Part shown: piece by piece, positions 2,378 to 58,604 of the stretch | Layout: each line of letters opens with the position of its first letter | Numbering within the stretch: the stretch's first letter is position 1 | DNA from: a virus | Taxonomy: Duplodnaviria > Heunggongvirae > Uroviricota > Caudoviricetes | DNA: 64,000 bases | Virus record (IMG/VR): IMGVR_UViG_3300042879_005260 | Location: 29,514 to 93,513 of that record | Reading direction: 5' to 3' (one strand) | Program-made: the position numbers and the translations under genes | The notes under the pieces: generated by a model | What the model was told of the DNA's origin: nothing | Databases searched by the model: none | The model's input: only the letters and a program-made list of their open reading frames with translations

Positions 2378-3622
2378 TTAATTTATCATAAGAATACGTT
2401 TTGTTATGTTATTACCTATTGTAACTATATAATTACCAGAAACAATGTCACCGACTTCAAAAGTTTGTGTACCAACAAATAAAATATTGTTAAATTTTTT
2501 AACACATTGGCCAGTTATATTGTAAATTTTAATATCACCACTTTTTTCTGTGACATTTTTAAAATTTAAAAAAATAAAATTTCTATCAGTAAAAACATCT
2601 ACAGTTTTATTTGTTTCTGAAAAAAAACCAGATGGATCCGAAATTTCAACAAGTACCGAATCTTCGGAAACACAAATACCATTGCTTGATTTTAATTTAA
2701 CAACATAAGTACCAACTTGGTTATAAACATGTGAAACCGTTGTTGAAATGGTGGAGTCAACCGCTGAACCATCACCAAAATCCCATATCTGACTTACTCC
2801 ATTAATAATTGTTGCATAAAAAATAATCGGGGTATTTATTATTCCAATAATTGGATTTATGTAATTAAATTGTATTTTAACAAAGTTAGTATTTGGGATT
2901 GTAACCCAATCCTCTATTATAAAACCATCTATTTGTAACAACATTTTATAGTTTCCAGATGTCAATAAAAAAAATATCGTATCAGATTCACCACTAAAAT
3001 CGGTAACAGTACCCAAAGTATCGTTTTCTGAGTTAATCAAAGTGATATCAACATCTAAAAAATTACTTAAATATTGAGTGACAATTAAACCACTACCATG
3101 TAAAACAGATTGTACCTGGCAAGGTTCTACGATTCCCGCCACAGTAAGAGGTGGGTGTATATGTATAAAAAACCTATTGTTAAATGTACCTGGAGTTAGT
3201 GAAACAGTAACACTGTTGTTTATTCTTAGGTTTTGTTTTAAACCTGTAATAGAATCTTCAATATAAATCATACTACTGGGTGGAAAACTACTAAAGTCAG
3301 AAACTGTTATTGTGTAATTTGCCAATGTTTGTATATAAAGGCCTAATGGTATTTTAAAATCTTTATTTAATTGACCCATAACGTTGATGGCCAATTTTTC
3401 ATTATCTATTATAGTGTAAATACTTGGGACACCTGGTAATGCCGCTAACATCTTTACACCGTCACTGCTTAGATTGAAACTATCACTTCCTAATGGGTCA
3501 AAATATATTACAGTTTCATCAGCACTATTATTACCTTGTAGTTCAATACACAATAGATTAGGTATTTCATTGGCGAATAAATTGGTTGTTATTAAGCAAA
3601 AAAATAGTAAAAACTTTTTCAT
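2378..3622 (-). CDS. secreted protein with T9SS type A (Por) C-terminal sorting domain
   Basis: signal peptide MKKFLLFFCLITTNLFA; C-terminus IKIYNITGQCV...GNYIVTIGN resembles Por secretion tail. Confidence 0.5.
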   Translation of the reverse strand: MKKFLLFFCLITTNLFANEIPNLLCIELQGNNSADETVIYFDPLGSDSFNLSSDGVKMLAALPGVPSIYTIIDNEKLAINVMGQLNKDFKIPLGLYIQTLANYTITVSDFSSFPPSSMIYIEDSITGLKQNLRINNSVTVSLTPGTFNNRFFIHIHPPLTVAGIVEPCQVQSVLHGSGLIVTQYLSNFLDVDITLINSENDTLGTVTDFSGESDTIFFLLTSGNYKMLLQIDGFIIEDWVTIPNTNFVKIQFNYINPIIGIINTPIIFYATIINGVSQIWDFGDGSAVDSTISTTVSHVYNQVGTYVVKLKSSNGICVSEDSVLVEISDPSGFFSETNKTVDVFTDRNFIFLNFKNVTEKSGDIKIYNITGQCVKKFNNILFVGTQTFEVGDIVSGNYIVTIGNNITKRILMIN

Positions 3623-6871: not shown

Positions 6872-7264
6872 TTATCTTTCAAAGACATCACCTAAATCAT
6901 CAAATAGTTTTTTATATTCGTTTTTAATCCCTTCACTCAGTCCATCATCACTAAAAATTCTTAGAAAATGATTTAACAAAAATTCTAGATTAAAATTTTC
7001 AGCTTTTTCGTAGAAAAAATGACTATCAGTTTTATCTGGAATAATTTCACCTATAAAGTAATAAAAATTATTATTTCCATTTTCTTCATCTACAATATAA
7101 TCATAACCATTAAAAGATTTTTTACCTTTTAATTTTGTTTGAAATAATTTCATTAAAAATTCAGGATTTTTTGAAGCATCACTTGGTGGTATAATATTAT
7201 AATTTTCGATCCAATCAAAATCATCAAACTCTTCCCTTAATATTTTTCTTATAAGATTTTTCAT
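6872..7264 (-). CDS. array-associated family member (conserved N-terminal module only)
   Basis: N-terminus MKNLIRKILREEFDDFDW identical to family; start abuts distal end of mini-array A. Confidence 0.5.
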   Translation of the reverse strand: MKNLIRKILREEFDDFDWIENYNIIPPSDASKNPEFLMKLFQTKLKGKKSFNGYDYIVDEENGNNNFYYFIGEIIPDKTDSHFFYEKAENFNLEFLLNHFLRIFSDDGLSEGIKNEYKKLFDDLGDVFER

Positions 7265-7277
7265 ATTTTATAAATAT

Positions 7278-7378
7278 CAGGTCAACACCTTTCGTTTATG
7301 GGTCATCTCTAGCGCCGTGAAATTAAATGATGATCTAGGTCTGCTGTCAATACCTTTCGTTTATGGGTCATCTCTAGC
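7278..7378 (-). CRISPR. mini-array A: 2 repeats (36 bp), 1 spacer (29 bp)
   Basis: repeats 7278-7313 (degenerate distal) and 7343-7378 (gene-proximal, gctagagatgacccataaacgaaaggtattgacagc in gene sense); spacer 7314-7342. Confidence 0.6.
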
Positions 7379-7707
7379 ATACGCATACATAAGTCTTTGA
7401 TTTCCTGATTGTTAAGACCAAATTTTTGATTTAATTTTCTCCAAATTTTATCATAATTAACTAATAAAATCGGATTTTTTTCATCCCTATCCGCATCATC
7501 CGCCATTAAATTTAGCCCACTTTTATCCTTATATAACATCCAACCTGGATTTTTTTCCGAAGGAATCATCTTTAAATTTGACATAATTTCATATAAAAAC
7601 TCTTCAGCGGGAGAAAATTGTTTGGTGTTACCAATCAATTCTTCTGCCCAACCAAAATCATCAAATTGTTCTTTTAGAATTTGTTTTACTATTTCACTAA
7701 TTTTCAT
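7309..7707 (-). CDS. array-associated family protein (FDDFGW...LEMTHKRKVLT); 3' end runs into mini-array A
   Basis: homologous over full length to 21508..21873, 39154..39597, 52997..53419; C-terminal LEMTHKRKVLT encoded by first repeat; ORF tail is read-through of spacer. Confidence 0.55.
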   Translation of the reverse strand: MKISEIVKQILKEQFDDFGWAEELIGNTKQFSPAEEFLYEIMSNLKMIPSEKNPGWMLYKDKSGLNLMADDADRDEKNPILLVNYDKIWRKLNQKFGLNNQEIKDLCMRMLEMTHKRKVLTADLDHHLISRR

Positions 7708-7732: not shown

Positions 7733-10108
7733 ATGTCAGTAAAAGAAAAAACTAAAATTACTATCCCATCAAAAGCAACTGTTAGAGTTCAGTGGGAGGA
7801 TGAACCACAAAACTATACTAAAGATAAAGTTAAAAGAATTGAACATTATTTTGCCGAAAAATATGGTGTTGAAAAAGTTCAGGTCATCTTTAAACCCAAA
7901 AAAGTTGATTCAGTTAATGGTGAGGTTGAAATGTCAATCACTGATAATGTTATGGACAGTAACTACCAAAGACGTTTATTTAAAGAATGGTTGGACAACA
8001 ACCAAATAAATGTTGATTGGGAACGTCTTTTACGTTTAGACGATAAGGTAAATGACAAGTTAAAACAAATTAGAGATGTTGAATATCGTTATCGTAACTG
8101 GTATATAAAGGAATTGGAATGGGATAATTTTTTATCTTATGGTGATGGTAATAAATTAACTTTTGATAATTTAAAAGGTGTCACCGTTATTACATCAAAT
8201 CCTGCAAATATGGGAGGTAAAACCGTTTTATCGGTGGACTTATTGTTGTTTTTATTTTTCAATGAAACCACCAGAACTAAAGTTGCTGCTCAAATTTTTA
8301 ATAAATTCAGAGATGTTAATCATGTTAGAGTTAAAGGGGTGATTACTATTGATGGCGGTGATTATATTATTGAAAGAAGTTTAAGTCGTTCCAAAAAAAG
8401 AAACGAAGAAGGTTATAATGTAAAAACTGATTTAAATTTTCAAAAAATAATGGCCGATGGTTCTATACAAAATCTAGAAGGTGAACAACGTCGAGAAACT
8501 GATGATTTTATTAGAAAATCTATTGGCAGTGTTGATGATTTCTTATTAACTATTATCGCAACCTCTGATAACCTGGAAGAATTAATCCATACTTTACCGA
8601 CACAAAAAGGTAAATTATTGTCAAAATTTATTGGTCTAGAAGTTATTGAACAAAAAGAAGAAATAGTAAAAGAATTAAAAAGTGCTTGGGCAAAAAATTT
8701 AAAATCTGACCAGTATAATACCGCAGATTTAACTGTTGAAATAGAAAATTTAAAAGAAAAAATTAAAACTTTGGGTTTGGACATTGAAACTTGTAAAACT
8801 CAAAAAGAAAATATTGAACAAGAGATTAAAGAAACTAATGATATAAAAGAAATTTTAATATCTCAGAAAATAACAATTGATAACGACGTTCTTAGATTAC
8901 GAATTACCGACATTGAAAGGGATATTAAAGACATCACAGATAAAGGTAAAAAATCAAAAGAAAAATACGATGTTTTAAAAGCCGAGTTTGATGCTTTAAC
9001 CGAGGTTGAGTACGATTCTCAAACACATAAAGAATGGAAACAACAATTAAGTGATTTAAACACAGCAAAATCACATAGAACCATCAAAAGGGATGGTGTT
9101 GTTAGTTTAATTAAAAATTTGGAAGAAGGAGAATTTTGTTCTTTATGTAAACAACCATTAAAAGATGTTGATCACTCTGAAGAAATTGCCGGAAATAAAT
9201 TGGCTTTGGAAGAATTAAACAAAAATATTGTAGATTTGGAAAAAGAAATTTTAACAGCAAAAACTGAAATTGAAAAATTAGATAAAATAAAAGAAAAAGT
9301 AGATGAATATGATAAAAAATCTTTAATGTTGGATAAACTTAATTTAGAGATTGATAATCTTAGGATGCAGTTGAAAGATAAAAAAGAGTTAAAAAAGAAG
9401 TACGAGGACAACATTGAAAACATTGAAAAAAATAAAGAACTAGATACTAAAATATTGGGTTACTCCTCTAAATTAGAAAGGTTAAACCGTGAAAGAGATG
9501 AGGTTTTAAATAGAAGCCAAAGAAACGCTTCTGAGATATTACGAGCAGAAGATACCATAACCAAAAATGTTTCTATCATTGAAGTTATTAAAACAGAAGA
9601 AGAAGTTAAAGTTATATTTGAAATCTATTCTAGAATGGTTGGTAAGAATGGTATTACAAAATTAATTATGAAAAATGTTATACCTTTATTAAATTCCGAA
9701 TTGGAGCGATTGTTAATTGATTCTGCTAATTTTAAATTATTGGTTGACATTAATGCAAAACAAGAAGTTGATTTTATCCTTCAAAGAGAAAATGAAAACG
9801 GACAGGAAATTTCCTATCTTTTGACTGAAGGTTCTGGGTTTGAAAAAACAATCGGTTCTTTGGCTTTAAGAATGGTATTATCAAGGGTTAGTCTACTACC
9901 AAAACCAAATATTGTAGTTTTAGATGAGGTTTTAGGTAAAGTTTCTAATGATAATTTAGAATTAGTGGGTAATTTCTTTCAAAAATGTTCTGAGATGTTT
10001 GAGAATATATTTTTAATTACTCATAACCCAACGGTCAGGGACTGGGCAACAAATATTATTGAAATCGAAAAAATAAATAATGTTTCTCTTTTGAAAATTA
10101 AAAGATAA
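7733..10108 (+). CDS. sbcC: Rad50/SbcC-family SMC-like ATPase
   Basis: Walker A-like NMGGKTV, long coiled coil, CxxC zinc hook CSLCKQPL, Walker B VVLDEV, H-loop LITHN; start moved to MSVKEK (7733) because track start 7622 overlaps the minus-strand gene. Confidence 0.65.
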   Translation: MSVKEKTKITIPSKATVRVQWEDEPQNYTKDKVKRIEHYFAEKYGVEKVQVIFKPKKVDSVNGEVEMSITDNVMDSNYQRRLFKEWLDNNQINVDWERLLRLDDKVNDKLKQIRDVEYRYRNWYIKELEWDNFLSYGDGNKLTFDNLKGVTVITSNPANMGGKTVLSVDLLLFLFFNETTRTKVAAQIFNKFRDVNHVRVKGVITIDGGDYIIERSLSRSKKRNEEGYNVKTDLNFQKIMADGSIQNLEGEQRRETDDFIRKSIGSVDDFLLTIIATSDNLEELIHTLPTQKGKLLSKFIGLEVIEQKEEIVKELKSAWAKNLKSDQYNTADLTVEIENLKEKIKTLGLDIETCKTQKENIEQEIKETNDIKEILISQKITIDNDVLRLRITDIERDIKDITDKGKKSKEKYDVLKAEFDALTEVEYDSQTHKEWKQQLSDLNTAKSHRTIKRDGVVSLIKNLEEGEFCSLCKQPLKDVDHSEEIAGNKLALEELNKNIVDLEKEILTAKTEIEKLDKIKEKVDEYDKKSLMLDKLNLEIDNLRMQLKDKKELKKKYEDNIENIEKNKELDTKILGYSSKLERLNRERDEVLNRSQRNASEILRAEDTITKNVSIIEVIKTEEEVKVIFEIYSRMVGKNGITKLIMKNVIPLLNSELERLLIDSANFKLLVDINAKQEVDFILQRENENGQEISYLLTEGSGFEKTIGSLALRMVLSRVSLLPKPNIVVLDEVLGKVSNDNLELVGNFFQKCSEMFENIFLITHNPTVRDWATNIIEIEKINNVSLLKIKR

Positions 10109-10146: not shown

Positions 10147-10614
10147 ATGGACAAAAGATATTTACTAATTATTATTGGAGGTTCTGAAGGTATTGAACGT
10201 GACTTAAATTTTATAGCAAACGGTAATACTGGTGTTAATTTTATCGACGGAAAAGGAATGTTTATATGTACTTTTTATAGCCCGTATACAACAGCTGAAA
10301 TCCATGAAAAACTTGTACATAGGCCTGCTATGATGTTATTTGATATTACAAACTCTGAAAATTATGGTATTAATTTACCTTCAAAATACTTTATGGGTAT
10401 TTTTCCAGAAATTGAAAAAACGTTAGAAACAACACAAACAACTTTTGAAGTTAAAACCAAAAGCAGACGTAGTAATCCAAAAAAGAAAACCAGATCTAAA
10501 AAAGTTACGGAAGAATTTGACAATGTTAATGACATTCTAGACAAACTTTCTCGTAATAAATACGATAGGGCGTGTTTAACCGAAAAAGAAATTGAAATCC
10601 TTAATAAAGGATAA
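10147..10614 (+). CDS. hypothetical protein
   Basis: ORF track 155 aa. Confidence 0.45.
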   Translation: MDKRYLLIIIGGSEGIERDLNFIANGNTGVNFIDGKGMFICTFYSPYTTAEIHEKLVHRPAMMLFDITNSENYGINLPSKYFMGIFPEIEKTLETTQTTFEVKTKSRRSNPKKKTRSKKVTEEFDNVNDILDKLSRNKYDRACLTEKEIEILNKG

Positions 10615-10616
10615 AA

Positions 10617-11099
10617 ATGGAATATTATGCGGGTATTGGTTCCAGAGAGACGCCAATAGAATTAAAAGAAAAAATTAAAATTATTGTTGAACATTTAAAT
10701 CAGAAAGGATATATTCTCCGTTCCGGTGGTGCTGAAGGTGCGGATTCTTTTTTTGAAGAGTTTGCTGATAAAAAAGAAATATATTTACCGTGGCGAGGCT
10801 TCAATGGCAACCAATCTTTACTATTTAATCCTAGTACAGAAGCTTTTTTAATGGCCGAAGAATACCACCCAAATTTTAAAATGTTAAGTTATGGTGTTAA
10901 AAAACTGATGGCCAGAAATTGTCACCAAGTTTTAGGGCAAGATTTAAAAACACCTGTTGATTTTATTGTTTGTTGGACAAAAAATGGAAATATTAATGGT
11001 GGCACGGGTCAAGCATTACGTATTGCAAAAAAACTAAATATCCCAGTCTATAATTTATTTTTTGAAGAAAGCTTTCAAAATTTATTAAAAAATGTCTAA
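10617..11099 (+). CDS. SLOG/DprA-LOG-like Rossmann-fold protein
   Basis: GIGSRETP...SGGAEGAD motif typical of DprA/Smf-like SLOG domains. Confidence 0.4.
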   Translation: MEYYAGIGSRETPIELKEKIKIIVEHLNQKGYILRSGGAEGADSFFEEFADKKEIYLPWRGFNGNQSLLFNPSTEAFLMAEEYHPNFKMLSYGVKKLMARNCHQVLGQDLKTPVDFIVCWTKNGNINGGTGQALRIAKKLNIPVYNLFFEESFQNLLKNV

Positions 11100-11335
11100 A
11101 TACTTATATTTATATTTTGAAAAACCCCAAAAAAGGTATTATTTTTGTAAAAAGTTTTTGTGATAAAGAAAAATACAAACTCAAAAGAAGATTCTAAAAA
11201 GTGGGAAAGATTCCATGAATATGAGGACGCGATTGTTATTTGGCGTTATGATTCAAAAATTAGCCAAATAAATCCCTACGAAGTAGAAGTTAAATACAAA
11301 GAAGAAATTAAAAAAAAAACAAATAAAATAAAATT

Positions 11336-12160
11336 ATGAGTATCACAAACACTAAAAGGTTTATCGACAATTCCGAAGAGAGTATTTCAAAATATCTTAA
11401 AGATGTTAGAAAACTTTCCATGCTTAAACCAGAAGAAGAGGTGGAATTAGCGAAAAAAGCACAAGAAGGTGATTCTAAAGCTTTAGAGATATTGGTAAAT
11501 TCTAACCTAAGATTCGTTATTTCAATCGCAAAACAATACCAAAACCAAGGGTTACCATTGTCTGATTTGATCGCTGAAGGTAATTTGGGATTAATTAAAG
11601 CCGCACAACGGTTTGATCACAATAAAGGTTTTAGATTTATTTCATACGCAGTTTGGTGGATTAAACAATCAATTATCCAATCCTTGAATGATAATGCTAG
11701 AACTGTTCGCCTACCTGTTAACATCACCAATAATATTTCAAAAGTAAAAAAAGAAGTTGCCGCTTTTGAACAGGAAAATGGCAGAAAACCCGATACTAAT
11801 GAAATGGATTTGTCAATACTTAATCAACCTTATTGTATGTCTTTGAATGAAACCATTAACGAAGATGGTGATGAGATGTTGGATGTAATTGAAGACAACA
11901 CTTTTGTAAGCCCAGACCAATCCTTCCAAAGTAATTCCGATTTGTTGAAAAATGAGTTGGAGAACATACTTTCCACCCTTTCAACACGTGAGCGTAATAT
12001 TATTGAACTATATTTTGGTTTAAATGGAAGTGCTTTAACTTTGGAAGAAATCGGTGATGAATATGGTTTGACAAAGGAACGTATTCGCCAAGTAAAAGCA
12101 AAAGCTTTAAGAAAATTAAGATATAAATCTTTAAATTTGTTTAAATATTTAAACGACTAA
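11336..12160 (+). CDS. sigma-70 family RNA polymerase sigma factor
   Basis: region 2 DLIAEGNLGLIKAAQRFD...FISYAVWWIKQ; region 4 LTLEEIGDEYGLTKERIRQVKAKALRKLR. Confidence 0.8.
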   Translation: MSITNTKRFIDNSEESISKYLKDVRKLSMLKPEEEVELAKKAQEGDSKALEILVNSNLRFVISIAKQYQNQGLPLSDLIAEGNLGLIKAAQRFDHNKGFRFISYAVWWIKQSIIQSLNDNARTVRLPVNITNNISKVKKEVAAFEQENGRKPDTNEMDLSILNQPYCMSLNETINEDGDEMLDVIEDNTFVSPDQSFQSNSDLLKNELENILSTLSTRERNIIELYFGLNGSALTLEEIGDEYGLTKERIRQVKAKALRKLRYKSLNLFKYLND

Positions 12161-16506: not shown

Positions 16507-16791
16507 ATGAATCGAAATTTAGTAAAACAAATCCTTAAAGAAGAACTTAACAAATCAGATGAGGCTAAAATTAAAAAATTAGCTCGTGATGAATTTGATA
16601 AGATGATTAAGAAACACCTTAAAAGTGATGCACTAGAAAAGGTGATTTCGGATTTGGTTATTAAAAACATTAAAAAAGACAAACCAACCCAAAAAGAAGT
16701 TGCGAAAATAACAAAAGAAGTTTTAACAAAACTTTATAAAGTACTTTGGACCAAGAATAACTTTTGGTCTAACGATTTGGAAAATATTTAA
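16507..16791 (+). CDS. hypothetical K/E-rich protein
   Basis: ORF track 94 aa. Confidence 0.35.
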   Translation: MNRNLVKQILKEELNKSDEAKIKKLARDEFDKMIKKHLKSDALEKVISDLVIKNIKKDKPTQKEVAKITKEVLTKLYKVLWTKNNFWSNDLENI

Positions 16792-21507: not shown

Positions 21508-21873
21508 ATGAAAAACCTTATAAGAAAAATATTAAGGGAAGAATTTGATGATTTTGATTGGGTGGGGGAAATTAAACAATTTTCACCCGCTGAAGAGTTC
21601 TTATATGAAATCATGTCCAATTTAAAGGCGGTTACTTCGGAAAAAAATCCAGGTTGGATGTTTTATAAGGATATAAGTGGACTAAATTTAATGGCGGATA
21701 ATGTGGATAGAGATGAAAAAAATCCTTATTTATTAGTTGATTATCGTCAAATTTGGAGAAAATTACGTCAAGAATTTGGCCTTAATGAACAAGAAATCAG
21801 TAATTTATGCGTGCGTATGCTGGAAATGACCCATAAACGAAAGGTATTGATAGCTGCATCTCCCGGATTTTGA
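21508..21873 (+). CDS. array-associated family protein; 3' end is first repeat of mini-array B
   Basis: MKNLIRKILREEFDDFDWVGEIKQFSPAEEF...CVRMLEMTHKRKVL; stop lies inside spacer 1. Confidence 0.55.
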   Translation: MKNLIRKILREEFDDFDWVGEIKQFSPAEEFLYEIMSNLKAVTSEKNPGWMFYKDISGLNLMADNVDRDEKNPYLLVDYRQIWRKLRQEFGLNEQEISNLCVRMLEMTHKRKVLIAASPGF

Positions 21874-22115
21874 AACGGTGCAGAGCTGGAAATGACCCAT
21901 AAACGAAAGGTGTTTACAGCAAAAACTTGACGAACTTTTTTCGGAGTCGCTGGAAATGACCCATAAACGAAAGGTGTTTACAGCGCCAATTCATAATTCC
22001 TGGCAAATCCCTCTGCTGGAAATGACCCATAAACGAAAGGTGTTTACAGCTGTTACTGATGGTGGTATTGTGGCATACAGCTGGAAATGACCCATAAACG
22101 AAAGGTATTACTCCA
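21819..22115 (+). CRISPR. mini-array B: 5 repeats (36 bp), 4 spacers (30, 28, 30, 29 bp)
   Basis: repeats at 21819, 21885, 21949, 22015, 22080 (consensus gctggaaatgacccataaacgaaaggtgtttacagc; first and last degenerate at 3' end); spacers 21855-21884, 21921-21948, 21985-22014, 22051-22079. Confidence 0.7.
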
Positions 22116-25753: not shown

Positions 25754-26719
25754 ATGGCTGAAACTTTATACGATGTTTTAGGTCTTAACAAGACAGCAAC
25801 AAAAGAAGAAATAAAAAAAGCTTATCGTAATTTAAGTAAACAACACCATCCAGATGTTGGCGGTGATGAGGAGGTTTTTAAAAAAATATCCCATGCCTAT
25901 AACATTTTGTCTGATGATGACAAAAGAAAAAATTATGATAACCATGGTAGTGAAAAAAACCAAAGATTTAACCCATTTGCCGGTAATCCCTTTACCAATA
26001 TTAGAATGCGACCAAGACCTATAAACATTGAATTACGTTTAACGGTGGAGGAAGTTTATAACGGTTCTTTAAAAAAAATCCATTTTAAAGTTGAAAAACC
26101 CTGTAGCACATGTAACGGTGTCGGTGCAACGGAAACTAAACGCTGTGATGTTTGTGAAGGTAAGGGTGCGATTATTCATCAAATACAAAATATGCAACAC
26201 ATTACAATGTGTACTACATGTAACGGTAGTGGTATAATACCTATTAAAAAATGTAATACATGCAACGGTATCGGCAGACAATTAGTGTCAGAAAATCATG
26301 ATATCGACATACCTAAAGGGGTTACAGAAGGTAACACTTTAATCTTAGAAGGTTTTGGTAATCAAAATACAGCTGGTTATCGTGGTGATGTTTTTTTATT
26401 AATAAAAGTAGAACCACATCCTGTTTACACAATAGAAGGCCTTGATATTAGCAAAAAAGAAGAATTACCTTTTATTGATATGGTTTTAGGTTGTAATTAT
26501 GAATTAGAAACTTTAGGTGGTAAATTTAAAATTACAATACCAGAAAGTTGCGAATCAAACAAAATTTTTCGGTTAAAAGGCCAAGGTATTAAGGATGAAA
26601 ATTCTGGACGTGTTGGTGATTTATATGTGAAAGTAATACCTAAAATACCAAAAGAATTAACAACAGAAGAAAAAAATACTCTTTTAAGTCTTAAAAACTT
26701 TAGTAATAAATTTTCCTGA
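25754..26719 (+). CDS. dnaJ: DnaJ-like chaperone
   Basis: J domain with HPD (YRNLSKQHHPDVGGD); four CxxCxGxG zinc-finger repeats. Confidence 0.8.
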   Translation: MAETLYDVLGLNKTATKEEIKKAYRNLSKQHHPDVGGDEEVFKKISHAYNILSDDDKRKNYDNHGSEKNQRFNPFAGNPFTNIRMRPRPINIELRLTVEEVYNGSLKKIHFKVEKPCSTCNGVGATETKRCDVCEGKGAIIHQIQNMQHITMCTTCNGSGIIPIKKCNTCNGIGRQLVSENHDIDIPKGVTEGNTLILEGFGNQNTAGYRGDVFLLIKVEPHPVYTIEGLDISKKEELPFIDMVLGCNYELETLGGKFKITIPESCESNKIFRLKGQGIKDENSGRVGDLYVKVIPKIPKELTTEEKNTLLSLKNFSNKFS

Positions 26720-32443: not shown

Positions 32444-32520
32444 AGTCAGGTGGCTGAATTGGCGACAGAGGCACTCCATTAGACAATGGGTGGATGCAGG
32501 TTCGAGTCCTGTCCTGACTA
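32444..32520 (+). tRNA. tRNA-like element with aberrant anticodon region
   Basis: acceptor AGTCAGG/CCTGACT and T-arm GCAGGTTCGAGTCCTGT are canonical, but the central region forms an extended CCATT-AGAC-AATGG hairpin instead of a 7-nt anticodon loop. Confidence 0.4.
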
Positions 32521-32540
32521 CTAAAAAATTAAAAAATAAA

Positions 32541-33849: not shown

Positions 33850-34121
33850 GCACCTGTAGCTCAGTTGGATTAGAGCAACTGCCTCAAATCGGGGGTGTTA
33901 TGTCAGAAATGACATAATAGAATTCATCAAATTCGGGGAATCCTGTAAAATGGTAATCCCGAGCGAAGCCTGAAAAGGAACGTGTAGAGACTTGACGGTG
34001 AACACCTAAGTTAGAATCTAATAAGGTGATGGGAAAGTCCAGACCACAAACGTAAATGGTAGTGAAAACTATAGTGGTATGTCTAAGCAGTAGGTCCCAG
34101 GTTCGAATCCTGGCAGGTGTA
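33850..34121 (+). tRNA. tRNA-Arg(UCU) interrupted by a group I intron
   Basis: 5' exon GCACCTGTAGCTCAGTTGGATTAGAGCAACTGCCT (33850-33884); 3' exon TCTAAGCAGTAGGTCCCAGGTTCGAATCCTGGCAGGTGTA (34082-34121). Spliced product closely matches bacterial tRNA-Arg(UCU). Exon ends in U, intron ends in G. Confidence 0.6.
33885..34081 (+). ncRNA. group I intron (trnL-intron-like core), ~197 nt
   Basis: GGTAATCCCGAGCGAAGCC resembles the trnL intron GGGCAATCCTGAGCCAA element; GTGTAGAGACTTGACGG resembles the catalytic-core GCAGAGACTCAATGG; P7 pairing GACUU/AAGUC present. Confidence 0.55.
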
Positions 34122-34634: not shown

Positions 34635-35810
34635 TTTGTAAGACAAAATCGGGAAACCGAATCGTTCTTTGAAAAAATAGATTATCCGTTCAGGTGAAAG
34701 TAAGTTCTTCGGAACTATGATAACTTGATAAAGATATTGGGCCGTGTATAGTCCTTAAATAAACTACGAAAGTAGGATAAAGTGAAATCATCTGTGTTAG
34801 TGGTTTTGCGTCTTGGGAAACCGAGGTCGAGTACACAAGTGGGATATCATCTAACCTTTAGTACTGAGGGCAACGCTTTAGGGAAAATGGTTAGATGACT
34901 AAGCAATGTGGATTGTTTAGTTGAGGTGGGAACACCGATAAGAATAACCCATAGGAATCTTACAAAAAATGTGATTATCCAGTTACATTATTGTGGGTTC
35001 CAATACAAGAGAGGACTTAAAACCGAAAGGTAAGATGGAGAACGAGTGGTGTCGCTACCATCCCTATCAAAGATTTACCAAAATCTTGATATGAAGTAAT
35101 CTTAAAATATGGAAATGGGGACATTTCACTGAGTAGTTTGGTATTCTTTTCTTCAAAAGAGAACGGAGCCTACGACGGACCACTACTTGGACACATCCAC
35201 AACACAAAAACTTTATTATGAAAATTAAAGTCCATTTAATAAATAATTCTAAAGCAAAAGTGTTCGTCAGGTGTTGATGAAAGGTGATTACATAGTCATG
35301 AGTTGTTCATGGCACACTGAGACCGCAAGTTGATGTGTATTCTTGTGAAAAACCTCTAGTCCCGCAAGGATCAACTGGGGAGGCATCCTCGGAGAGAGTT
35401 GAGTAGAAAGAGAGTAGTTGGCACCTCTAGGAGTTGTATACCTAAAAAACCATCACTGAGAAATACTTCTCAAAAGGAAGTGGAAATAAAGGGAAACAAT
35501 AATCCTTTTAAAGGTTCTCACAAAAAACGTGTATTCTCAGCGTAAGTTTTAAAAAATATTTTAAAAGTAAAAAATCAAAACCACTGGTTAAACCCACTGG
35601 GGATTAGGCTCTAATGATGTCCACCCTTTGGTAAGTACTCACAATAGGCCGGCTTCTTTAATGGCTGATACGTGTATAAGTCCGAGCATAAAACACGAAC
35701 TCTACTTACTTTGTGAAATTACTGCCAATTGCAGACTACTATGTGGAATAAATAGATGACCTTCTGAACATAAAGATAAGTGCTCTTGGTTTGATTTTGT
35801 TATAATATAA
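34635..35810 (+). ncRNA. candidate large structured non-coding RNA (~1.2 kb, unknown family)
   Basis: downstream of promoter P2; no ORF above 60 aa on either strand; locally GC-richer than genome; many local hairpins; T-arm-like GGTTCGATTCC near 35855. Confidence 0.3.
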
Positions 35811-37540: not shown

Positions 37541-38041
37541 ATGATTAAGAAAAATATTAAAAAACATTTTCTTCTTGAAAATAATGTTAATTCTTTAACT
37601 ATAAGTGGTCCTGGTCTTACTCTTGGTCAAAGTCTTAATATTGTTATGAATAATGGGATTGTGTTAACACAACCAATACGTTATTGTTTATCAATACAAC
37701 GTAACCAAGGGGTCAAAAGATTTTATGTTAACCTTTTAAACCCTATATCTTATGTATATAATAACAATTTTAATCGAGAATGGTTACCACTGCATTTAAA
37801 AATTACAGATTCTATTAATTGTGACTCACCCCAAGAATGGTTTCAGGATTGGTTCTTCGATGATCAACAACAAGGTACTTTTTTAACCTTAGAAAAAATT
37901 AACCCTACAGGTGAAATTACTGGTTGTTATAATTTTCACAATTCTTTTTTACAAGAACTCAACAATGAAGTTGTTTTTGATAGATTGGTAAATCCTATAG
38001 AAATTAAGATTAAATACGCTAATATGAATGTTTTGTTTTAA
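37541..38041 (+). CDS. hypothetical protein
   Basis: ORF track 166 aa. Confidence 0.4.
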   Translation: MIKKNIKKHFLLENNVNSLTISGPGLTLGQSLNIVMNNGIVLTQPIRYCLSIQRNQGVKRFYVNLLNPISYVYNNNFNREWLPLHLKITDSINCDSPQEWFQDWFFDDQQQGTFLTLEKINPTGEITGCYNFHNSFLQELNNEVVFDRLVNPIEIKIKYANMNVLF

Positions 38042-39105
38042 ATTCTATCATAAACATCTTCTTCAAAGTAAGGTAGAACTTCTTTTCTACTAGGATATTC
38101 ATCAAACCTTGGAGACCAAAGTTGCCCATTTTCCGTTAACATATTTTCAAATAAACTTTTAAATAGATAAGAGTCAAAATCATGACAATCATCACAATAT
38201 TCTTCAGGATTTTCAACTTTACGGTTATTTAAACAATGTTCAAAACAACCATAAAAATAATCATTAATCACCCCTTCAAATAAGTCAGTAATATCAAATT
38301 TTAAAAAATATTTGGTTCTACCTTTTTCGTTAGTTGTGGTACCCTCAATAGGTTGACCAAATACATCTGTTATGGCTTCTTTTATAGATTTATAAATATT
38401 GTCAGTTGTGGCAACATTATAAGCACTATCATAAGCCCAACCAAACTCTCTTTTTAATTCTAAAAAAGTATCGTCATCATCTATTAAACGACCTAAAGAT
38501 TCTGGGTTTTCTGTTAACCAATTAAAATATTCGTTATCCAATAGACGTTCTTTTCCTCCGGACATTAAATCTTCAACATAATAGATTTCTCTTTTCTCTG
38601 GTAAATTACCAAAAATATCTAATTGTTTTGGGTTGTAATTATCAGGGATAACATATTCTTTTTTAATATGTTTTAAAATATATTCATAAAGTTTATTATT
38701 ACCTACAACACCTTCTAACCAAACATCATTAAACCAACTGCCGTAGGTATCGTTATAAGGTTCCCACCAATTGTTTTCATCACAAAATATTTTTTCAACC
38801 AACCAAGAATTAACTATACCGTATTGGGTTAAATTATCATCATTTTTGAAAAAACCAGTAAAGTCACAAAAACCATCTACCGTCATCATAATTCTATCAC
38901 CTTCTAAATTTATATCACTAAATTCGGAGGCTAGTATTGGCATGATTCTTTTTTTAAGGTTTACACTTTTTGATTTGCCGTAATTTGCACGATACCAAAG
39001 TATGCCAGCCGGAATTTCAACTGTTTCAACATTATCAATTAAATCTCCCACCCAATCAAAATCATCAAATTCTTCTCTCAATATTTTTCTTATAAGGTTT
39101 TTCAT
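38038..39105 (-). CDS. array-associated family member (conserved N-terminal module fused to an unrelated 330-aa body)
   Basis: MKNLIRKILREEFDDFDWVG then unrelated sequence; start abuts distal repeat of mini-array C. Confidence 0.5.
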   Translation of the reverse strand: MKNLIRKILREEFDDFDWVGDLIDNVETVEIPAGILWYRANYGKSKSVNLKKRIMPILASEFSDINLEGDRIMMTVDGFCDFTGFFKNDDNLTQYGIVNSWLVEKIFCDENNWWEPYNDTYGSWFNDVWLEGVVGNNKLYEYILKHIKKEYVIPDNYNPKQLDIFGNLPEKREIYYVEDLMSGGKERLLDNEYFNWLTENPESLGRLIDDDDTFLELKREFGWAYDSAYNVATTDNIYKSIKEAITDVFGQPIEGTTTNEKGRTKYFLKFDITDLFEGVINDYFYGCFEHCLNNRKVENPEEYCDDCHDFDSYLFKSLFENMLTENGQLWSPRFDEYPSRKEVLPYFEEDVYDRI

Positions 39106-39118
39106 ATTTTATAAATAT

Positions 39119-39286
39119 CAGGTTAACATTTTTCGTTTATGGGTCATCTCCAGCTATGCCATTGGTAGCAGAGTGGTCTCTAACGCTGTCAATACCTTTC
39201 GTTTATGGGTCATCTCCAGCCAAAGTTCCCACGTTTTAAAAAGACATGCAGCTGTCAATACCTTTCGTTTATGGGTCATCTCCAGC
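39119..39286 (-). CRISPR. mini-array C: 3 repeats (36 bp), 2 spacers (30 bp each)
   Basis: repeats 39119-39154 (degenerate distal), 39185-39220, 39251-39286 (gene-proximal); spacers 39155-39184 and 39221-39250. Confidence 0.65.
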
Positions 39287-39597
39287 ATACGCACGCATAA
39301 GTCTTTGGTTTCCTGATAGTTAAGACCAAATTTTTGACTTAATTTTGACCAAATTTCATCATAATCAACCCATAAACAAGGGTTTTTTTCATTTCTATCC
39401 ACATTATCCGCCATTAAATTTAGCCCACTTTTATCCTTATATAACATCCAACCTGGATGTTTTTCCGAAGGAACCGCCTTTAAATTGGACATAATTTCAT
39501 AAAGAAATTCTTCAGCGGGGGAAAATTCTTTAATTTCCCCCACCCAATCAAAATCATCAAACTCTTCCCTTAATATTTTTCTTATAAGATTTTTCAT
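39154..39597 (-). CDS. array-associated family protein; 3' end runs through mini-array C
   Basis: MKNLIRKILREEFDDFDWVGEIKEFSPAEEF...CVRMLEMTHKRKVLT; ORF tail is in-frame read-through of repeat-spacer units (each 66 bp). Confidence 0.55.
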   Translation of the reverse strand: MKNLIRKILREEFDDFDWVGEIKEFSPAEEFLYEIMSNLKAVPSEKHPGWMLYKDKSGLNLMADNVDRNEKNPCLWVDYDEIWSKLSQKFGLNYQETKDLCVRMLEMTHKRKVLTAACLFKTWELWLEMTHKRKVLTALETTLLPMA

Positions 39598-39610
39598 ATT
39601 TTATAAATAT

Positions 39611-39844
39611 CAGGTCAACACCTTTCGTTTATGGGTCATCTCCAGCTCAAATCAACTTCAATCAAAGTCCGATTCAGCTGTCAATACCTTTCGTTTATGG
39701 GTCATTTCCAGCACCCTCGCCCGGATTGTTGGAGGTGAAAAGGCTGTCAATACCTTTCGTTTATGGGTCATTTCCAGCCAGCGAATGTGAAGCGTGACAC
39801 CTCCGGTTGCTGTCAATACCTTTCGTTTATGGGTCATTTCCAGC
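39611..39844 (-). CRISPR. mini-array D: 4 repeats (36 bp), 3 spacers (30 bp each)
   Basis: repeats 39611-39646 (degenerate distal), 39677-39712, 39743-39778, 39809-39844; spacers 39647-39676, 39713-39742, 39779-39808; spacers about 50% GC in a roughly 30% GC genome. Confidence 0.7.
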
Positions 39845-41346
39845 ATACGCACGCATAAGTCTTTGATTTCTTGTTCATTAAGACGAAATTCTTGATTTAA
39901 TTTTAACCAAATTTCATCATAATCAACCCATAAATAAGGATTTTCTTTATCTCTATCCGCATCATCCGCCATTAAAGTAACCCCGCTTTTATCCTTATAT
40001 AACATTAAACCTGGATTATTTTCCGAAGGAACCACCTTTAAATTGGACATGATTTCATACAAAAATTCTTCAGCGGGTGAAAATTGTTTGGTGTTACCAA
40101 CTAATTCTTCTGCCCAACCAAAATCATCGGATTCAAATAAATTATTTATAATATCTTGAACTTCTTTTTGGTAGATACCAATTTTTTTAAACTTAATTCT
40201 ACCCGATTCAAGATGTTTTAAAAAATCAATAACATAATAACCAATTTTATGTTTTATACCATTAACTGAGTCTTCCCAGGAAATTATAAAATCATCATAC
40301 CCATCTTCCACTCTTAACTCTTCTATTTTATATTCTTCATTTGGTTTGTTGGTATAATAAAAAATAGAACCTATATAATCTTTTGGGTTTTGAAACTTAT
40401 TTTCTTTATTTTCATATAAACTACTTATTATATCATAAGCGTTTGGTAAATCACCTAAATTTTTTAAAACAAAAAAACCATTATTTAAATATTCAATAAG
40501 GATACTTATTGTCATTGTAGAATATTCTGTCATTGGTTCACCATCTTCATTTAGATCATCAGGGTCTTCCCATTCAATGTCAATTAAGTCAACAGAACTA
40601 TCTTGATCCCAAATACGATATACCACAAATTCTTCAGGGCTATAAAACTCAAATCCAATTAGATTTTCATCTTTTAAAAAATCAAATTTACCTTCCAATA
40701 ATAAAGAATTATTTTTTTCTTTATTTTCTTGAATTTTATTTTTGTTAAATAAATTTTTTAAACCATGGGTACCAACAGCCATAATAATACCACTCAAAAG
40801 TTCTTGAACATTATTAATAGTAAAACCTTTTTCTGTGGTTAAATTTTTAATAAAATCTAAAACCGGAACTGATAAAAATGTAAAACTTAAAATATCTAAT
40901 AAATCGTTAATCATGTAACCAAATTTTTTACCAAATATTTTAAATAAATTGATTGTTTTGGAAATAAAATTTAAAACTGGTGATATTTCTTTTTCAAGGC
41001 CTCTTTCTTTAATCTTATCAACAACCTCATCAATTTCTTCTTTTGGTTTTGATAGGATAATATAAATCGCAACAATTGTTAAAAGTGCAACATCATAATC
41101 CGTAACATTTAAATTTTTATTTTCTAACAAAGATTTAACTGGGCCAATAAAAGCGGAAATACCAACTCCATAAGTCATTATAAAGTTGAAATTACTTTTT
41201 AGCTGTGAAATGATTTCTTTTAACACTGGATTAGTTTTTACATCGAAACCTTTATTAATTATATTTTCATTTAAAGAATTAAGTTTACCTTTAAGATAAA
41301 CCTCTTCTAGTAGTAAATTTAAAGAGATATTAGAAATGTTACCCAT
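39658..41346 (-). CDS. large protein (562 aa) whose C-terminal ~130 aa is the array-associated family domain; 3' end runs through mini-array D
   Basis: ...FESDDFGWAEELVGNTKQFSPAEEFLYEIMSNLK...CVRMLEMTHKRKVLT; N-terminal ~430 aa unrelated. Confidence 0.55.
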   Translation of the reverse strand: MGNISNISLNLLLEEVYLKGKLNSLNENIINKGFDVKTNPVLKEIISQLKSNFNFIMTYGVGISAFIGPVKSLLENKNLNVTDYDVALLTIVAIYIILSKPKEEIDEVVDKIKERGLEKEISPVLNFISKTINLFKIFGKKFGYMINDLLDILSFTFLSVPVLDFIKNLTTEKGFTINNVQELLSGIIMAVGTHGLKNLFNKNKIQENKEKNNSLLLEGKFDFLKDENLIGFEFYSPEEFVVYRIWDQDSSVDLIDIEWEDPDDLNEDGEPMTEYSTMTISILIEYLNNGFFVLKNLGDLPNAYDIISSLYENKENKFQNPKDYIGSIFYYTNKPNEEYKIEELRVEDGYDDFIISWEDSVNGIKHKIGYYVIDFLKHLESGRIKFKKIGIYQKEVQDIINNLFESDDFGWAEELVGNTKQFSPAEEFLYEIMSNLKVVPSENNPGLMLYKDKSGVTLMADDADRDKENPYLWVDYDEIWLKLNQEFRLNEQEIKDLCVRMLEMTHKRKVLTATGGVTLHIRWLEMTHKRKVLTAFSPPTIRARVLEMTHKRKVLTAESDFD

Positions 41347-41378: not shown

Positions 41379-42092
41379 GTGATATTTATTTATAAATCAA
41401 ATTTAATTATGAAAAATATAATTACACTTAATGAAAATCAACTTGAAAAATTGGTTAAAAAAATTATCCAAGAAAATGATGAAAAAGAAAGCAATCGTTA
41501 TATGTTTTTTTCCAATCTAGAACAAATGCATAGGCAAACAGCAATGTTGTTGGAAATGGATGAAGAAACAATAACAAATATATTGGAAAACGGTCATGAT
41601 TGGGCACAAGACCATATCGCAGAAGCAAAAAATAATATGGACCAAGTTTTCGATTTTTTAATGAACGAAACTAAAGGTGGTGACCACGAGTATGATGACT
41701 ATGATGATGACTATGATGATGACTATGATGATAATGAGATGATGGTTATGGAACCGCAACTAGAATCTTATTTAAGAGAAAATTCTGATAGAATTATAGA
41801 TTTTGATGAATTTGGTTTTACTGAATTACTTCCTATAAATGAAGCTAAAGGTAAGGGTGCTTGTGCTAATAGAGGTTTAAGTAAACCATGGTTAACACCT
41901 GGTGGTCCTAAAAAACGTTCTGTTTGTGTTAAAAACGCAAGTGGTAATGTGGTTAAAGTAAACTTTGGTGACCCAAATATGAGAATAAAAAAGTCTAACC
42001 CAAAAAGACGTAAATCTTTTAGAGCTCGTCATAAATGTAGTAACCCAGGTCCTAAATGGAAGGCAAAATATTGGAGTTGCCGCGCGTGGTGA
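41379..42092 (+). CDS. protein with acidic DDYDDDYDDDYDD repeat and basic Cys-containing C-terminal tail
   Basis: codon-level tandem repeat at 41694-41740; tail ...HKCSNPGPKWKAKYWSCRAW. Confidence 0.4.
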   Translation: MIFIYKSNLIMKNIITLNENQLEKLVKKIIQENDEKESNRYMFFSNLEQMHRQTAMLLEMDEETITNILENGHDWAQDHIAEAKNNMDQVFDFLMNETKGGDHEYDDYDDDYDDDYDDNEMMVMEPQLESYLRENSDRIIDFDEFGFTELLPINEAKGKGACANRGLSKPWLTPGGPKKRSVCVKNASGNVVKVNFGDPNMRIKKSNPKRRKSFRARHKCSNPGPKWKAKYWSCRAW

Positions 42093-42978
42093 TCATCAAC
42101 TCAATACCTTTATAAGATTTTAACTTACCTTTAATAACTTTAGTTATATTTGACCTATCTAAATTATTTTCTTTACAAAATTTAGATAGGTCATTTTTTA
42201 ATATTTCCATAATTAAATTTTTGTTTCTATCGTAAAAATTTACCACTTCAAGATTTAAATTATCATATTCTTGACATTTTGTTAAAATTTTATTGTCAGT
42301 TTGTTGAGTATCTAAAAAACAATAGTAACCTTTATTTCTTTTAATATTTTTTATATGACCCCTTAATGTATTAGTAAAAAAATGTATTTTTAAATTATTT
42401 TTTTCACAAAAATCTTCTAAACTTTTAATTCTTAAAATATTGTTTTGGGCATCAACTAAAACCCAATTCTTTGCTTTATTTTTATTTTGTTCTACTAATC
42501 TAGATGTGTTTTTTTGGCTTATTTTATTTTTATGTTCCTGACTAAATTTTTTACCCTTATTAGACATAATGAATTTTTTAACTTTTTCTTGATATTCCAC
42601 ACTATTTAAAGTTTTTTGCCATTTTTCCGATTTTTTTAAACCGTCAGAAATTATTTTAGATAAACATTCAGACACCATTCGCATCCTGTTTTTTTGACCA
42701 CCACCTAAAATATTGTACCCATTGGGTGTTATAGAGCTTAATTGTTTTATCCAGTAAATTTCTTTTTCATCTAATTCTTCTAAAGTTGAAGCCTTATCTA
42801 TTATTTCCCATTCAAAATTTTCTATACCATATTTTTTTATGGCATTTAAAAACGGCCTATTACTTTTATCAAGTTTTGATTCTTTTAAATGACCTTTAAT
42901 TCTTTTATCTAAATTTCTAATTGTTTGACCAATATAGATTTTGTTATTTATTTTATTTTTAACTCTGTAAATTATCAT
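42052..42978 (-). CDS. GIY-YIG homing endonuclease
   Basis: MIIYRVKNKINNKIYIGQT...R..KGH GIY-YIG motif; 308 aa with extended C-terminal region. Confidence 0.7.
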   Translation of the reverse strand: MIIYRVKNKINNKIYIGQTIRNLDKRIKGHLKESKLDKSNRPFLNAIKKYGIENFEWEIIDKASTLEELDEKEIYWIKQLSSITPNGYNILGGGQKNRMRMVSECLSKIISDGLKKSEKWQKTLNSVEYQEKVKKFIMSNKGKKFSQEHKNKISQKNTSRLVEQNKNKAKNWVLVDAQNNILRIKSLEDFCEKNNLKIHFFTNTLRGHIKNIKRNKGYYCFLDTQQTDNKILTKCQEYDNLNLEVVNFYDRNKNLIMEILKNDLSKFCKENNLDRSNITKVIKGKLKSYKGIELMITTRGNSNILPSI

Positions 42979-52996: not shown

Positions 52997-53419
52997 GTGA
53001 AAAACCTTATAAAAAAAATATTAAGAGAAGAGTTTGATGATTTTGATTGGGTGGGGGAAATTAAAGAATTTTCCCCCGCTGAAGAATTTCTTTATGAAAT
53101 TATGTCCAATTTAAAGGCGGTTCCTTCGGAAAAAAATCCAGGTTGGATGTTATATAAGGATAAAAGTGGGCTAAATTTAATGGCGGATAATGTGGATAGA
53201 AATGAAAAAAACCCTTGTTTATGGGTTGATTATGATGAAATTTGGTCAAAATTAAGTCAAAAATTTGGTCTTAACTATCAGGAAACCAAAGACTTATGCG
53301 TGCGTATGCTGGAGATGACCCATAAACGAAAGGTATTGACATCTGATGGCCTGCCTGCACGGTTTCTTGTTTTGCTGGAGATGACCCATAAACGAAAGGT
53401 ATTAACCTCATATTTATAA
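52997..53419 (+). CDS. array-associated family protein (apparent GTG start); 3' end runs through mini-array E
   Basis: VKNLIKKILREEFDDFDWVGEIKEFSPAEEF...CVRMLEMTHKRKVLT; ATG at 52994 is followed by TGA, GTG in frame. Confidence 0.5.
   Translation: MKNLIKKILREEFDDFDWVGEIKEFSPAEEFLYEIMSNLKAVPSEKNPGWMLYKDKSGLNLMADNVDRNEKNPCLWVDYDEIWSKLSQKFGLNYQETKDLCVRMLEMTHKRKVLTSDGLPARFLVLLEMTHKRKVLTSYL
53308..53409 (+). CRISPR. mini-array E: 2 repeats (36 bp), 1 spacer (30 bp)
   Basis: repeats 53308-53343 and 53374-53409 (degenerate distal); spacer 53344-53373 tgatggcctgcctgcacggtttcttgtttt. Confidence 0.6.
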
Positions 53420-53422
53420 AAT

Positions 53423-54734: not shown

Positions 54735-54920
54735 ATGTTAATAGTTAAAGTCACAGGAAAAATAGATTCAGCAATTAAAGCTTTACGTTCAAAAGTTATT
54801 AAAACCCGCCAAATGCGAGAACTTAATGATAGAAGAGAATATAAAAAAGATTCAGAAAAGCGTAGAGAGATGGTAAAGAAGGCAATTCACGTTCAAAAAA
54901 AATATAAAAACAAAGATTGA
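54735..54920 (+). CDS. rpsU: ribosomal protein bS21
   Basis: 61-aa basic protein MLIVKVTGKIDSAIKALRSKV...RREYKKDSEKRREMVKKA follows the S21 pattern (IKV..AL+.F+....+....RRRE.YEKP). Confidence 0.55.
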   Translation: MLIVKVTGKIDSAIKALRSKVIKTRQMRELNDRREYKKDSEKRREMVKKAIHVQKKYKNKD

Positions 54921-58467: not shown

Positions 58468-58604
58468 AATATATTTTTAAATAAATATACCTAATATTTA
58501 TATATTATAAATGTTGTTTTATATGAAAAATTTAATTCGTAAAATAATAAAAGGTGAAAGGGATTATTTACTAAAATGACATAAAACTTAAAAGAAGAAT
58601 TTAA

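Follow-up and report, generated by a model that had tools for sequence, protein, structure and literature searches.

The internal head proteins of phage T4 reach the scaffolding core by way of a capsid-targeting sequence (CTS) at the N-terminus, MKTYQEFIAE, which is removed by one cut (PMC8442874). The protease gp21 cuts after glutamate; Alt is processed at ITE-6 and LTE-619 (PMC5694885). The T4 proteins IPI-III are highly basic (PMC8442874), and the internal proteins of the T-even phages form a diverse anti-restriction set with only the CTS in common (PMC3012670). In phage SPN3US, paralogous ejection proteins have kept identical N-terminal 15-mers (PMC5694885). The original work on the CTS is that of Mullaney & Black (1996) and Repoila et al. 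(1994), as cited in PMC3012670, PMC8442874 and PMC5694885. Here we consider an N-terminal module of 18 codons that recurs in a 64,000-nucleotide (nt) stretch of DNA from a tailed virus (Caudoviricetes; IMG/VR record IMGVR_UViG_3300042879_005260, positions 29,514 to 93,513), referred to below as the window. How does this module compare with the signals just described?

The module has two parts, an 11-residue leader, MKNLI[KR]KIL[KR]E, and an acidic, aromatic linker. The leader is almost invariant, a predicted basic amphipathic helix that ends I-L-[KR]-E, with I8, L9 and E11 invariant. The linker reads EEFDDFDW in the window and E..[DE]F.W elsewhere; tryptophan is present in 57% of the proteins, and residues 12-26 carry a mean charge of -2.9. 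A Sec or Tat signal peptide was considered and rejected: L4-I5 and I8-L9 are split by lysine or arginine, a stretch rich in glutamate and aspartate follows, and an uninterrupted hydrophobic core of 7 or more residues is absent.

Is the repetition real? A degenerate back-translation of the first eight codons (MKNLIRKI) has 8 sites in the window against 1.34 expected, and none of 100 shuffles reaches 8. The original prediction had placed a near-identical start of about 18 codons on at least seven open reading frames (ORFs). The repetition stands, but the ORFs headed by the module, which start MKN[LF]I[RK]KILREEFDDFDW, number six: four match it at all 18 positions, one at 17 and one, with a GTG start, at 16 (table 1). 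Three further copies are diverged or truncated (7309-7707, inside 39658-41346, and 58523-58579), the last probably the relic of a lost leader-bearing gene. The prediction had called two copies internal. That in 39658-41346 is indeed an internal remnant, with only the second half of the module left; the variant leader of 7309-7707, on the other hand, sits at the N-terminus.

The bodies behind the module had been described as diverging completely. This is so only for the genes at 6872 (family F3) and 38038 (family F2). The products of 21508, 39154, 52997, 53423 and 7309, together with the C-terminal 150 amino acids (aa) of 39658-41346, are paralogues of about 115 aa that share 55-82% identity and constitute family F1. 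By profile-profile comparison (hhalign), the likeness of F1 to F2 and of F3 to F2 is limited to 21-26 N-terminal columns. That of F1 to F3 spans about 60 columns, beyond which the F3 body is unrelated to F1; the F2 body is unrelated to both. Searches of all eight module ORFs against Pfam, PHROGs and PADLOC gave nothing significant, and PDB sequence profiles gave no match. F1 has 154 database relatives, down to 56% identity.

How far does the leader extend beyond the window? Viral loci totalling 1.18 Mb hold 179 leader-headed ORFs of 69-619 aa in 57 body clusters unrelated by BLAST; these loci were retrieved by the leader pattern, which biases the density of leader genes and not the number of distinct bodies. 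A degenerate 33-nt DNA pattern of the leader occurs in more than 115 IMG/VR stretches among the matches listed, as against two matches in 596 Gb of genomes of bacteria and archaea. One of the two cellular matches comes from a single-cell genome of Prochlorococcus, on a contig that at 63,985 nt is exactly as long as the viral contig IMGVR_UViG_2716884754_000003. The leader is virus-specific. It was not found in cultured phages by blastn or tblastn, and we found neither a published description of it nor a Pfam or PHROG family for it. Its cargo is mostly small and acidic (median isoelectric point, pI, 4.8), although one leader family is a 510-aa enzyme of the CCA-adding/poly(A) polymerase type (PF01743). 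The start of the module (I[KV][KRQ]IL[KR]E…[DE]F.W) is carried by distant homologues of both unrelated bodies, those of F2 being 28-59% and those of F3 32-71% identical. It also heads further unrelated bodies in related loci, some of which lack the repeat arrays found beside the module in the window (for example L013 and L015, the latter with four consecutive leader genes). Since these distant homologues and array-free loci carry it, the module is not a local graft: the leader is old and widespread.

At what level does selection act? Between F1 paralogues the proportion of synonymous differences (pS) in the module is 0.14-0.41, and the ratio of nonsynonymous to synonymous change (dN/dS) ranges from 0 to 0.14 in all but one of the six pairs, the exception having 0.28; for the F1 body it is about 0.3. 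Across 131 unique copies the codons for leucine (TTA/CTT/CTA), isoleucine (ATT/ATC/ATA), asparagine and lysine or arginine (AAA/AGA/CGT) vary at fixed amino acids, and the sequence 5' of the ATG is not conserved across contigs. We conclude from this synonymous variation and the unconserved upstream sequence that selection acts mainly on the peptide.

Structure prediction with AlphaFold2 (AF2) gives a confident model of F1, including the helix and strand encoded by the array repeat, for which no match was found among solved structures. Most of the F1 core scores above 90 in predicted local distance difference test (pLDDT), whereas residues 1-20 average 52-55; residues 1-28 of F2 fall below 50. 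In these low-confidence models the leader appears as an unanchored helix that makes no confident contacts with the core. Two fusions tie the leader to the N-terminal position. P0132 has gained an extra N-terminal domain by fusion; of the module at its old site just the DF.W half is left, and its new N-terminus once more begins MKKIIKEILKEE. In the 562-aa ORF of the window the module behind the added domain has likewise lost its first half. We also considered F1 as the leader region of a CRISPR array mis-called as a gene. This was ruled out by the dN/dS of the body, the 154 homologues, the confident AF2 core and the existence of an intact paralogue without an array.

Do the leader-bearing relatives encode the head proteins of a T4-type phage? 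Locus L012, from a contig that shares a spacer with the window, contains in order of transcription a gp21-family protease, a 179-aa protein, an F1 gene with its array, a scaffold, a gp23-family capsid protein, a homing endonuclease and a leader-bearing 226-aa protein. The protease (10513-11304) matches Peptidase_S77/gp21 (PF03420, 2.5e-28) and the capsid protein matches the gp23 family (PF07068, 2.3e-68). The putative scaffold (L012:7012-8565, minus strand) is hyper-acidic and 517 aa long, and combines an extended series of DEDYM repeats with a coiled coil at its C-terminus; its gene is the one immediately upstream of the capsid gene, and the F1 gene and array precede it. The same head genes are also present in seven more leader-bearing loci (L034/43/54/59/65/85/3), and we infer that the window's own phage has the same ones. 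The capsid proteins of this lineage (n = 81) conserve L-[LI]-[NT]-E about 15-20 residues before an FPIVRR block, and more than 600 IMG/VR stretches encode a capsid protein of this type. Variant leaders without the MK start do occur in a few head-region proteins around the capsid genes.

A longer, leader-like motif, K.II.LTE.D…IVKRV[IL]NE[QE], was seen in proteins encoded close to T4-type head genes, at the N-terminus in some and at a domain boundary inside the protein in others (L126:5977-6255, L185:5761-6726, L193:14103-15734, L195:5834-7060, and minus-strand ORFs in L204 and L189). The L204 and L189 proteins are homologues, one with the long form of the motif and the other with a short form, MRNIDNIIRKVIKEQ.

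The peptide-level selection, the unanchored predicted helix, the I-L-[KR]-E end and the T4-type head genes of the relatives together suggest a reading that we tentatively prefer and regard as possible: that the leader is a capsid-targeting and cleavage signal, in the manner of the T4 CTS, borne by otherwise unrelated accessory proteins. While the prohead assembles, the basic helix would bind the hyper-acidic scaffolding core and so bring the protein to it; the gp21-family (S77) prohead protease would cut after the invariant glutamate, E11, of I-L-[KR]-E; and the mature protein, from residue 12, would stay in the head and enter the next host with the DNA. Scaffold binding, cleavage and virion location would follow the T4 precedent. 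A targeting peptide of this kind had been one of the two possibilities raised by the original prediction, and it now has circumstantial support from the gp21, scaffold and gp23 genes on leader-bearing contigs and from the I-L-[KR]-E end.

Several observations weigh against a capsid signal. The head genes are seen in relatives and not in the window, and apart from the F1/array units those relatives have only weak protein similarity to it. Within 9 kb of 80 homologous capsid genes (60-76% identity; 1.07 Mb) no N-terminal leader of this type was found, so that leader genes do not regularly belong to the head module and may be missing from many relatives. An acidic cargo is unlike the highly basic IPI-III of T4, a CCA-adding/poly(A) polymerase-type enzyme would be an odd passenger in a capsid, and six or more genes for packaged proteins would be a large number for 64 kb. 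The motif L-x-E carries little information and is weak as evidence. There are codon preferences, too: ATA stands at codon 8 in 93% of the copies and AAA at codons 2 and 7 in about 88%, and the ATA bias hints at some constraint at the nucleotide level.

If not a capsid signal, what might the leader be? Somewhat less likely, in our view, is an interaction or regulatory tag unrelated to the capsid, one that recruits accessory proteins to a phage or host hub (which could be a chaperone, protease, RNA polymerase, ribosome or membrane) or acts as an N-terminal degron that times their removal. An amphipathic helix, albeit one modelled by AF2 at low confidence, followed by an acidic, aromatic linker would suit such a role, as would the presence of the leader on cytoplasmic-type enzymes such as the CCA-adding enzyme. 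The N-terminal recognition motifs of ClpX also begin with methionine, a basic and a hydrophobic residue. The phage has its own full DnaJ and its own bS21, and leader genes lie mostly in accessory regions, not in head modules. A tag, however, leaves unexplained the invariant glutamate at the end of the helix, the restriction to viruses, and the leader-like motifs at domain boundaries of head-region proteins. That the leader is an RNA-level device is a poorer candidate still: an A/U-rich signal for translation initiation or ribosome selection, read by the Shine-Dalgarno-less and possibly bS21-modified ribosomes of Bacteroidota, of which the peptide is a by-product. The sequence is extremely A-rich, the codon preferences just mentioned would fit, the gene-start motif ATATTTATA is genome-wide, and selective translation has been proposed for phage bS21 (PMC9723584). 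Yet the leucine, isoleucine, arginine/lysine and asparagine codons vary freely under a constant amino-acid sequence, a hydrophobic periodicity (L4, I5, I8, L9) is a feature of protein, and only a minority of genes carry the leader. Chance likeness among lysine-, isoleucine- and leucine-rich N-termini can be dismissed. The genome is AT-rich (GC 26-36%), and MK starts are common in such genomes, but none of the shuffles reaches the observed count and the cellular genomes in which the 33-nt pattern is so rare, beside more than 115 IMG/VR stretches among the matches listed, include many that are AT-rich; the chance reading is refuted.

The other possibility raised by the original prediction was that the start codon and N-terminus hitch-hike with the end of the array as part of a recombining cassette, the 18 codons being kept without any function of the peptide. 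Locally, this is what is seen. A block comprising the terminal array repeat, the gene-start motif ATATTTATAAAAT and the 54-nt module is identical at 102 of 103 nt between the F3 gene at 6872 and the F1 gene at 39154, after which identity drops to 21 of 66; for the F2 gene the same block is identical at 96 of 103 and then at 28 of 66. The exchange boundary lies at codon 12 in L002 and at codon 15 in L003, and the alignment of junctions proposed as a check on the prediction does place breakpoints at the module boundary, in codons 12-19. The genes 39154-39597 and 52997-53419 are on opposite strands and separated by 13 kb. Their bodies nevertheless agree throughout 84 codons, without even a synonymous change, but 3 of the 54 nt of their modules differ, which points to a recent gene conversion with its boundary at the leader. 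Two leader alleles (MKNLI… and MKI.EIVKQILKE) are each found on both F1 and F3, and the stump at 58523 also suits a cassette. Modules of different families are somewhat more alike within a locus (identity 0.69) than between loci (0.62), but modules of the same family agree better still across loci (0.77), so that homogenization within a locus is detectable but modest and family membership is the stronger predictor. Hitch-hiking does not account for leaders in array-free loci and on 57 body clusters, for their retention in homologues down to 28% identity, for a module dN/dS of 0-0.28 despite synonymous change, or for upstream sequence that is unconserved across contigs. As the sole explanation it is improbable and has been largely refuted. 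In this genome, leader copies that follow arrays are homogenized together with the terminal repeat of the array, up to boundaries in codons 12-19; a leader common to many genes serves as a stretch of homology, and local hitch-hiking and gene conversion act on top of an older, functionally conserved peptide.

Two further statements about the surroundings of the module need to be amended. The roughly 20 bp of upstream sequence thought to belong to it is ATATTTATAWNAT, about 13 nt long, a gene-start motif that is not specific to the module: it directly precedes many start codons throughout the window (32 sites against 11 expected; for example at 10127, 18997, 36138, 41347, 42988 and 48672), many of them those of genes without the module, and is a candidate phage promoter or translation-start element. 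The module was also said always to follow the distal repeat of an array. It does so at four of the five arrays; array D is followed by no such gene, and of the 17 multi-repeat arrays examined in related loci, 7 give way to other sequence, three of these with a visible hairpin and T-run.

What are these arrays? A 36-nt repeat (GCTGGAAATGACCCATAAACGAAAGGTATTGACAGC, core ACCCATAAACGAAAGG) occurs in 16 copies that form five mini-arrays with unique spacers of 28-30 nt. In every array the first repeat is also the last 12 conserved codons of an F1 gene (LEMTHKRKVLTA). As the period of 66 nt equals 22 codons, the ORFs read in frame through the repeats until a spacer supplies a stop. Spacers of the window have 33-57% GC in a genome of 28% GC, and the 29 unique spacers average 40%, where the phage DNA has about 28-31%. 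Distal spacers are common to related contigs, and those proximal to F1 differ (in array C, two proximal spacers are present that L010 and L005 lack); distal repeats are degenerate. The polarity of spacer turnover is that expected of CRISPR adaptation, and the arrays show the general features of adapting arrays. The repeat ends GCUG…CAGC in the window and GUUG…CAAC in L001/L004/L011; a hairpin is predicted (z = -3.0), and covariation in the repeat was not significant, being no higher than in controls. Neither PADLOC nor Pfam detected a Cas protein, Cas13b included, among the large ORFs of the window or of the array-bearing loci. The 19-mer of the repeat is absent from 185,579 genomes (GTDB representatives), Rfam gave no CRISPR-DR match, and searches of the window, of 1.2 Mb of related loci and of IMG/VR found no spacer target. 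One 22-mer spacer match, in a metagenome contig of 61% GC, lay inside a low-complexity palindrome and was judged to be due to chance.

Table 1. Leader-bearing genes, arrays and other features of the window, with their positions in the 64,000-nt stretch.
Feature	Position	Strand	Description
F3 gene	6872-7264	-	130 aa; leader/module = codons 1-18 (7211-7264); 18/18 module match
Gene-start motif ATATTTATAAAAT	7265-7277	-	Between terminal repeat and ATG; also at 39106-39118, 39598-39610 and 53410-53422
Array A	7278-7378	-	Two 36-nt repeats, one 29-nt spacer; distal repeat degenerate at 3' end
F1 paralogue	7309-7707	-	132 aa; variant leader MKISEIVKQILKEQFDDFGW at 7648-7707 (8/18); 3' end reads into array A
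ORF	16507-16791	+	94 aa; distant leader-like start MNRNLVKQILKEEL
F1 paralogue	21508-21873	+	121 aa; leader 21508-21561 (18/18); last conserved codons LEMTHKRKVL = repeat 1 of array D
Array D	21819-22115	+	5 repeats, 4 spacers; no leader gene after
F2 gene	38038-39105	-	355 aa; leader 39052-39105 (18/18)
Array B	39119-39286	-	3 repeats, 2 spacers
F1 paralogue	39154-39597	-	147 aa; leader 39544-39597 (18/18); in frame through two array B repeats
Array C	39611-39844	-	4 repeats, 3 spacers; distal spacer shared with L010, two proximal unique to window
Fusion protein	39658-41346	-	562 aa; unrelated N-terminal ~400 aa, C-terminal F1 domain; module remnant IINNLFESDDFGW at 40114-40152
F1 paralogue	52997-53419	+	140 aa; GTG start; leader 52997-53050 (16/18); reads through array E
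Array E	53308-53409	+	2 repeats, 1 spacer
Divergent F1 paralogue, array-less	53423-53806	+	127 aa; leader 53423-53476 (17/18); C-terminus keeps HKRxV, not repeat sequence
Leader stump	58523-58579	+	MKNLIRKIIKGERDYLLK, then stop after 18 codons; 10/18; in gap between minus-strand genes
PKD/type IX sorting protein	2378-3622	-	414 aa; PKD domain and type IX secretion C-terminal sorting domain (at Pfam threshold)
SbcC/LmuB-like ATPase	7736-10108	+	
Sigma-70-family factor	11336-12160	+	
DnaJ	25754-26719	+	Full-length (J domain, zinc finger, C-terminal domain)
tRNA, anticodon UUA	32444-32521	+	ARAGORN 'tRNA-Stop'; Rfam tRNA, 36.9 bits
Group I intron	33875-34062	+	RF00028, 61 bits; adjoins tRNA-like sequences
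GOLLD RNA	35129-35543	+	Full-length; Rfam RF02032, 306 bits; within tRNA-rich region
GIY-YIG homing endonuclease	42052-42978	-	
bS21 ribosomal protein	54735-54920	+	PF01165, precomputed for identical gene in L119

What kind of phage carries the module? The window is AT-rich (about 28% GC) and phage-like, with at least 21 tRNA genes; blastn and tblastn found no relatives among cultured phages. The PKD/type IX sorting protein is its main clue to a Bacteroidota host. Freshwater myoviruses of Bacteroidetes that encode bS21, and for which selective translation was proposed, have been described (PMC9723584); the type IX sorting protein, sigma factor, DnaJ and bS21 of the window make it fit among them. 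The leader-bearing lineage is a large one, made up of uncultured, AT-rich, T4-like myoviruses whose hosts are probably freshwater Bacteroidota. Other features of the window (table 1) include a GOLLD RNA, a group I intron, an SbcC/LmuB-like ATPase, a GIY-YIG homing endonuclease and a tRNA with the anticodon UUA, a possible ochre suppressor.

Should the leader prove to be a signal for capsid targeting and cleavage, it would be a sequence tag that predicts which proteins very abundant, uncultured T4-like phages of fresh and marine waters carry into the cell. The T4 counterparts of such proteins are dedicated anti-restriction factors; dozens of ORFan families would become candidates for anti-defence or takeover functions in the first minute of infection, and foreign proteins might be packaged with the leader as a portable tag. 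A bolder and quite unlikely extension is that the leader-tagged proteins form a large, fast-turning set that is loaded into the capsid and injected, with the F1 transcript yielding both a protein and phage-chosen CRISPR RNAs (crRNAs) that hijack or jam a host Cas13b. Were this true, the injected anti-defence arsenal of hundreds of uncultured phages could be read from sequence, and the overlap of gene and array would be a new kind of phage counter-CRISPR module. The F1-array fusion suggests manipulation of an RNA-targeting CRISPR system by the phage, and the arrangement merits study of its own, whatever the role of the leader.

How do these elements compare with those already known? We begin with the arrays. 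Type VI-B arrays are defined by 36-nt repeats with 5'-GUUG…CAAC-3' ends and a poly-U loop, and by 30-nt spacers (Smargon et al., bioRxiv 10.1101/092577). The arrays of the window share these 36/30-nt sizes, the 5'-G[CU]UG…CA[GA]C-3' ends and the order of spacer and then repeat; they differ in their loop (CAUAAACGAAA), which is A-rich and not poly-U, and no adjacent cas13b was found. With the mini-CRISPR arrays borne by other viruses (Medvedeva et al. 2019, PMC6858448) they have in common one to four spacers, several arrays per viral genome and no cas genes nearby. Polarized spacer turnover is common to all of these. Here, the first repeat is the coding 3' end of a conserved protein gene, F1. 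We found no description of such a fusion between a gene and a VI-B-like array, and it is a more unusual feature than the leader.

The conserved 5' ends also recall the PeSLs (a promoter with a stem-loop), which Arbiol, Comeau and Krisch reportedly described in 2010 as mobile regulatory cassettes that mediate gene shuffling in T4-type phages. Both are short conserved sequences at gene starts that flank hyperplastic accessory genes and provide homology for modular exchange. The PeSLs are non-coding, whereas the unit described here is mainly coding and selected at the level of the peptide.

Like SPN3US gp53/gp54 and the inner-body proteins of phiKZ (PMC5694885), the leader-bearing proteins have a conserved N-terminus on strongly diverged bodies. 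In SPN3US and phiKZ the propeptides are cleaved after glutamate by a gp21-related protease, a cleavage that is here only predicted; theirs, moreover, are paralogues of one family with an A/S-x-E motif, while the leader heads unrelated bodies and has I-L-[KR]-E as its motif.

It is with the CTS of T4 (IPI/IPII/IPIII, Alt) that the leader has most to be compared. Both are N-terminal peptides of about 10-11 residues that start MK and end in a hydrophobic residue, any residue and glutamate. Both head otherwise unrelated, polymorphic and non-essential-looking proteins; both belong to lineages with a gp21-family protease, a scaffold core and a gp23-family capsid (in the relatives, for the leader); and in both the conserved 5' ends coincide with recombination boundaries. 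There is, on the other hand, no homology between the leader and MKTYQEFIAE. The end motif is I-L-[KR]-E in one and I-A-E in the other, and only the pattern MK-polar-hydrophobic…hydrophobic-hydrophobic-x-E is common to them. The leader is strongly basic and is followed by an acidic, aromatic linker, whereas the T4 peptide is slightly acidic; the cargo of the leader is mostly acidic, that of T4 basic. The leader also heads far more families than the T4 peptide, 57 body clusters having been seen. By analogy with these systems, the leader may be seen as an unreported variant, in kind, of the CTS/propeptide principle.

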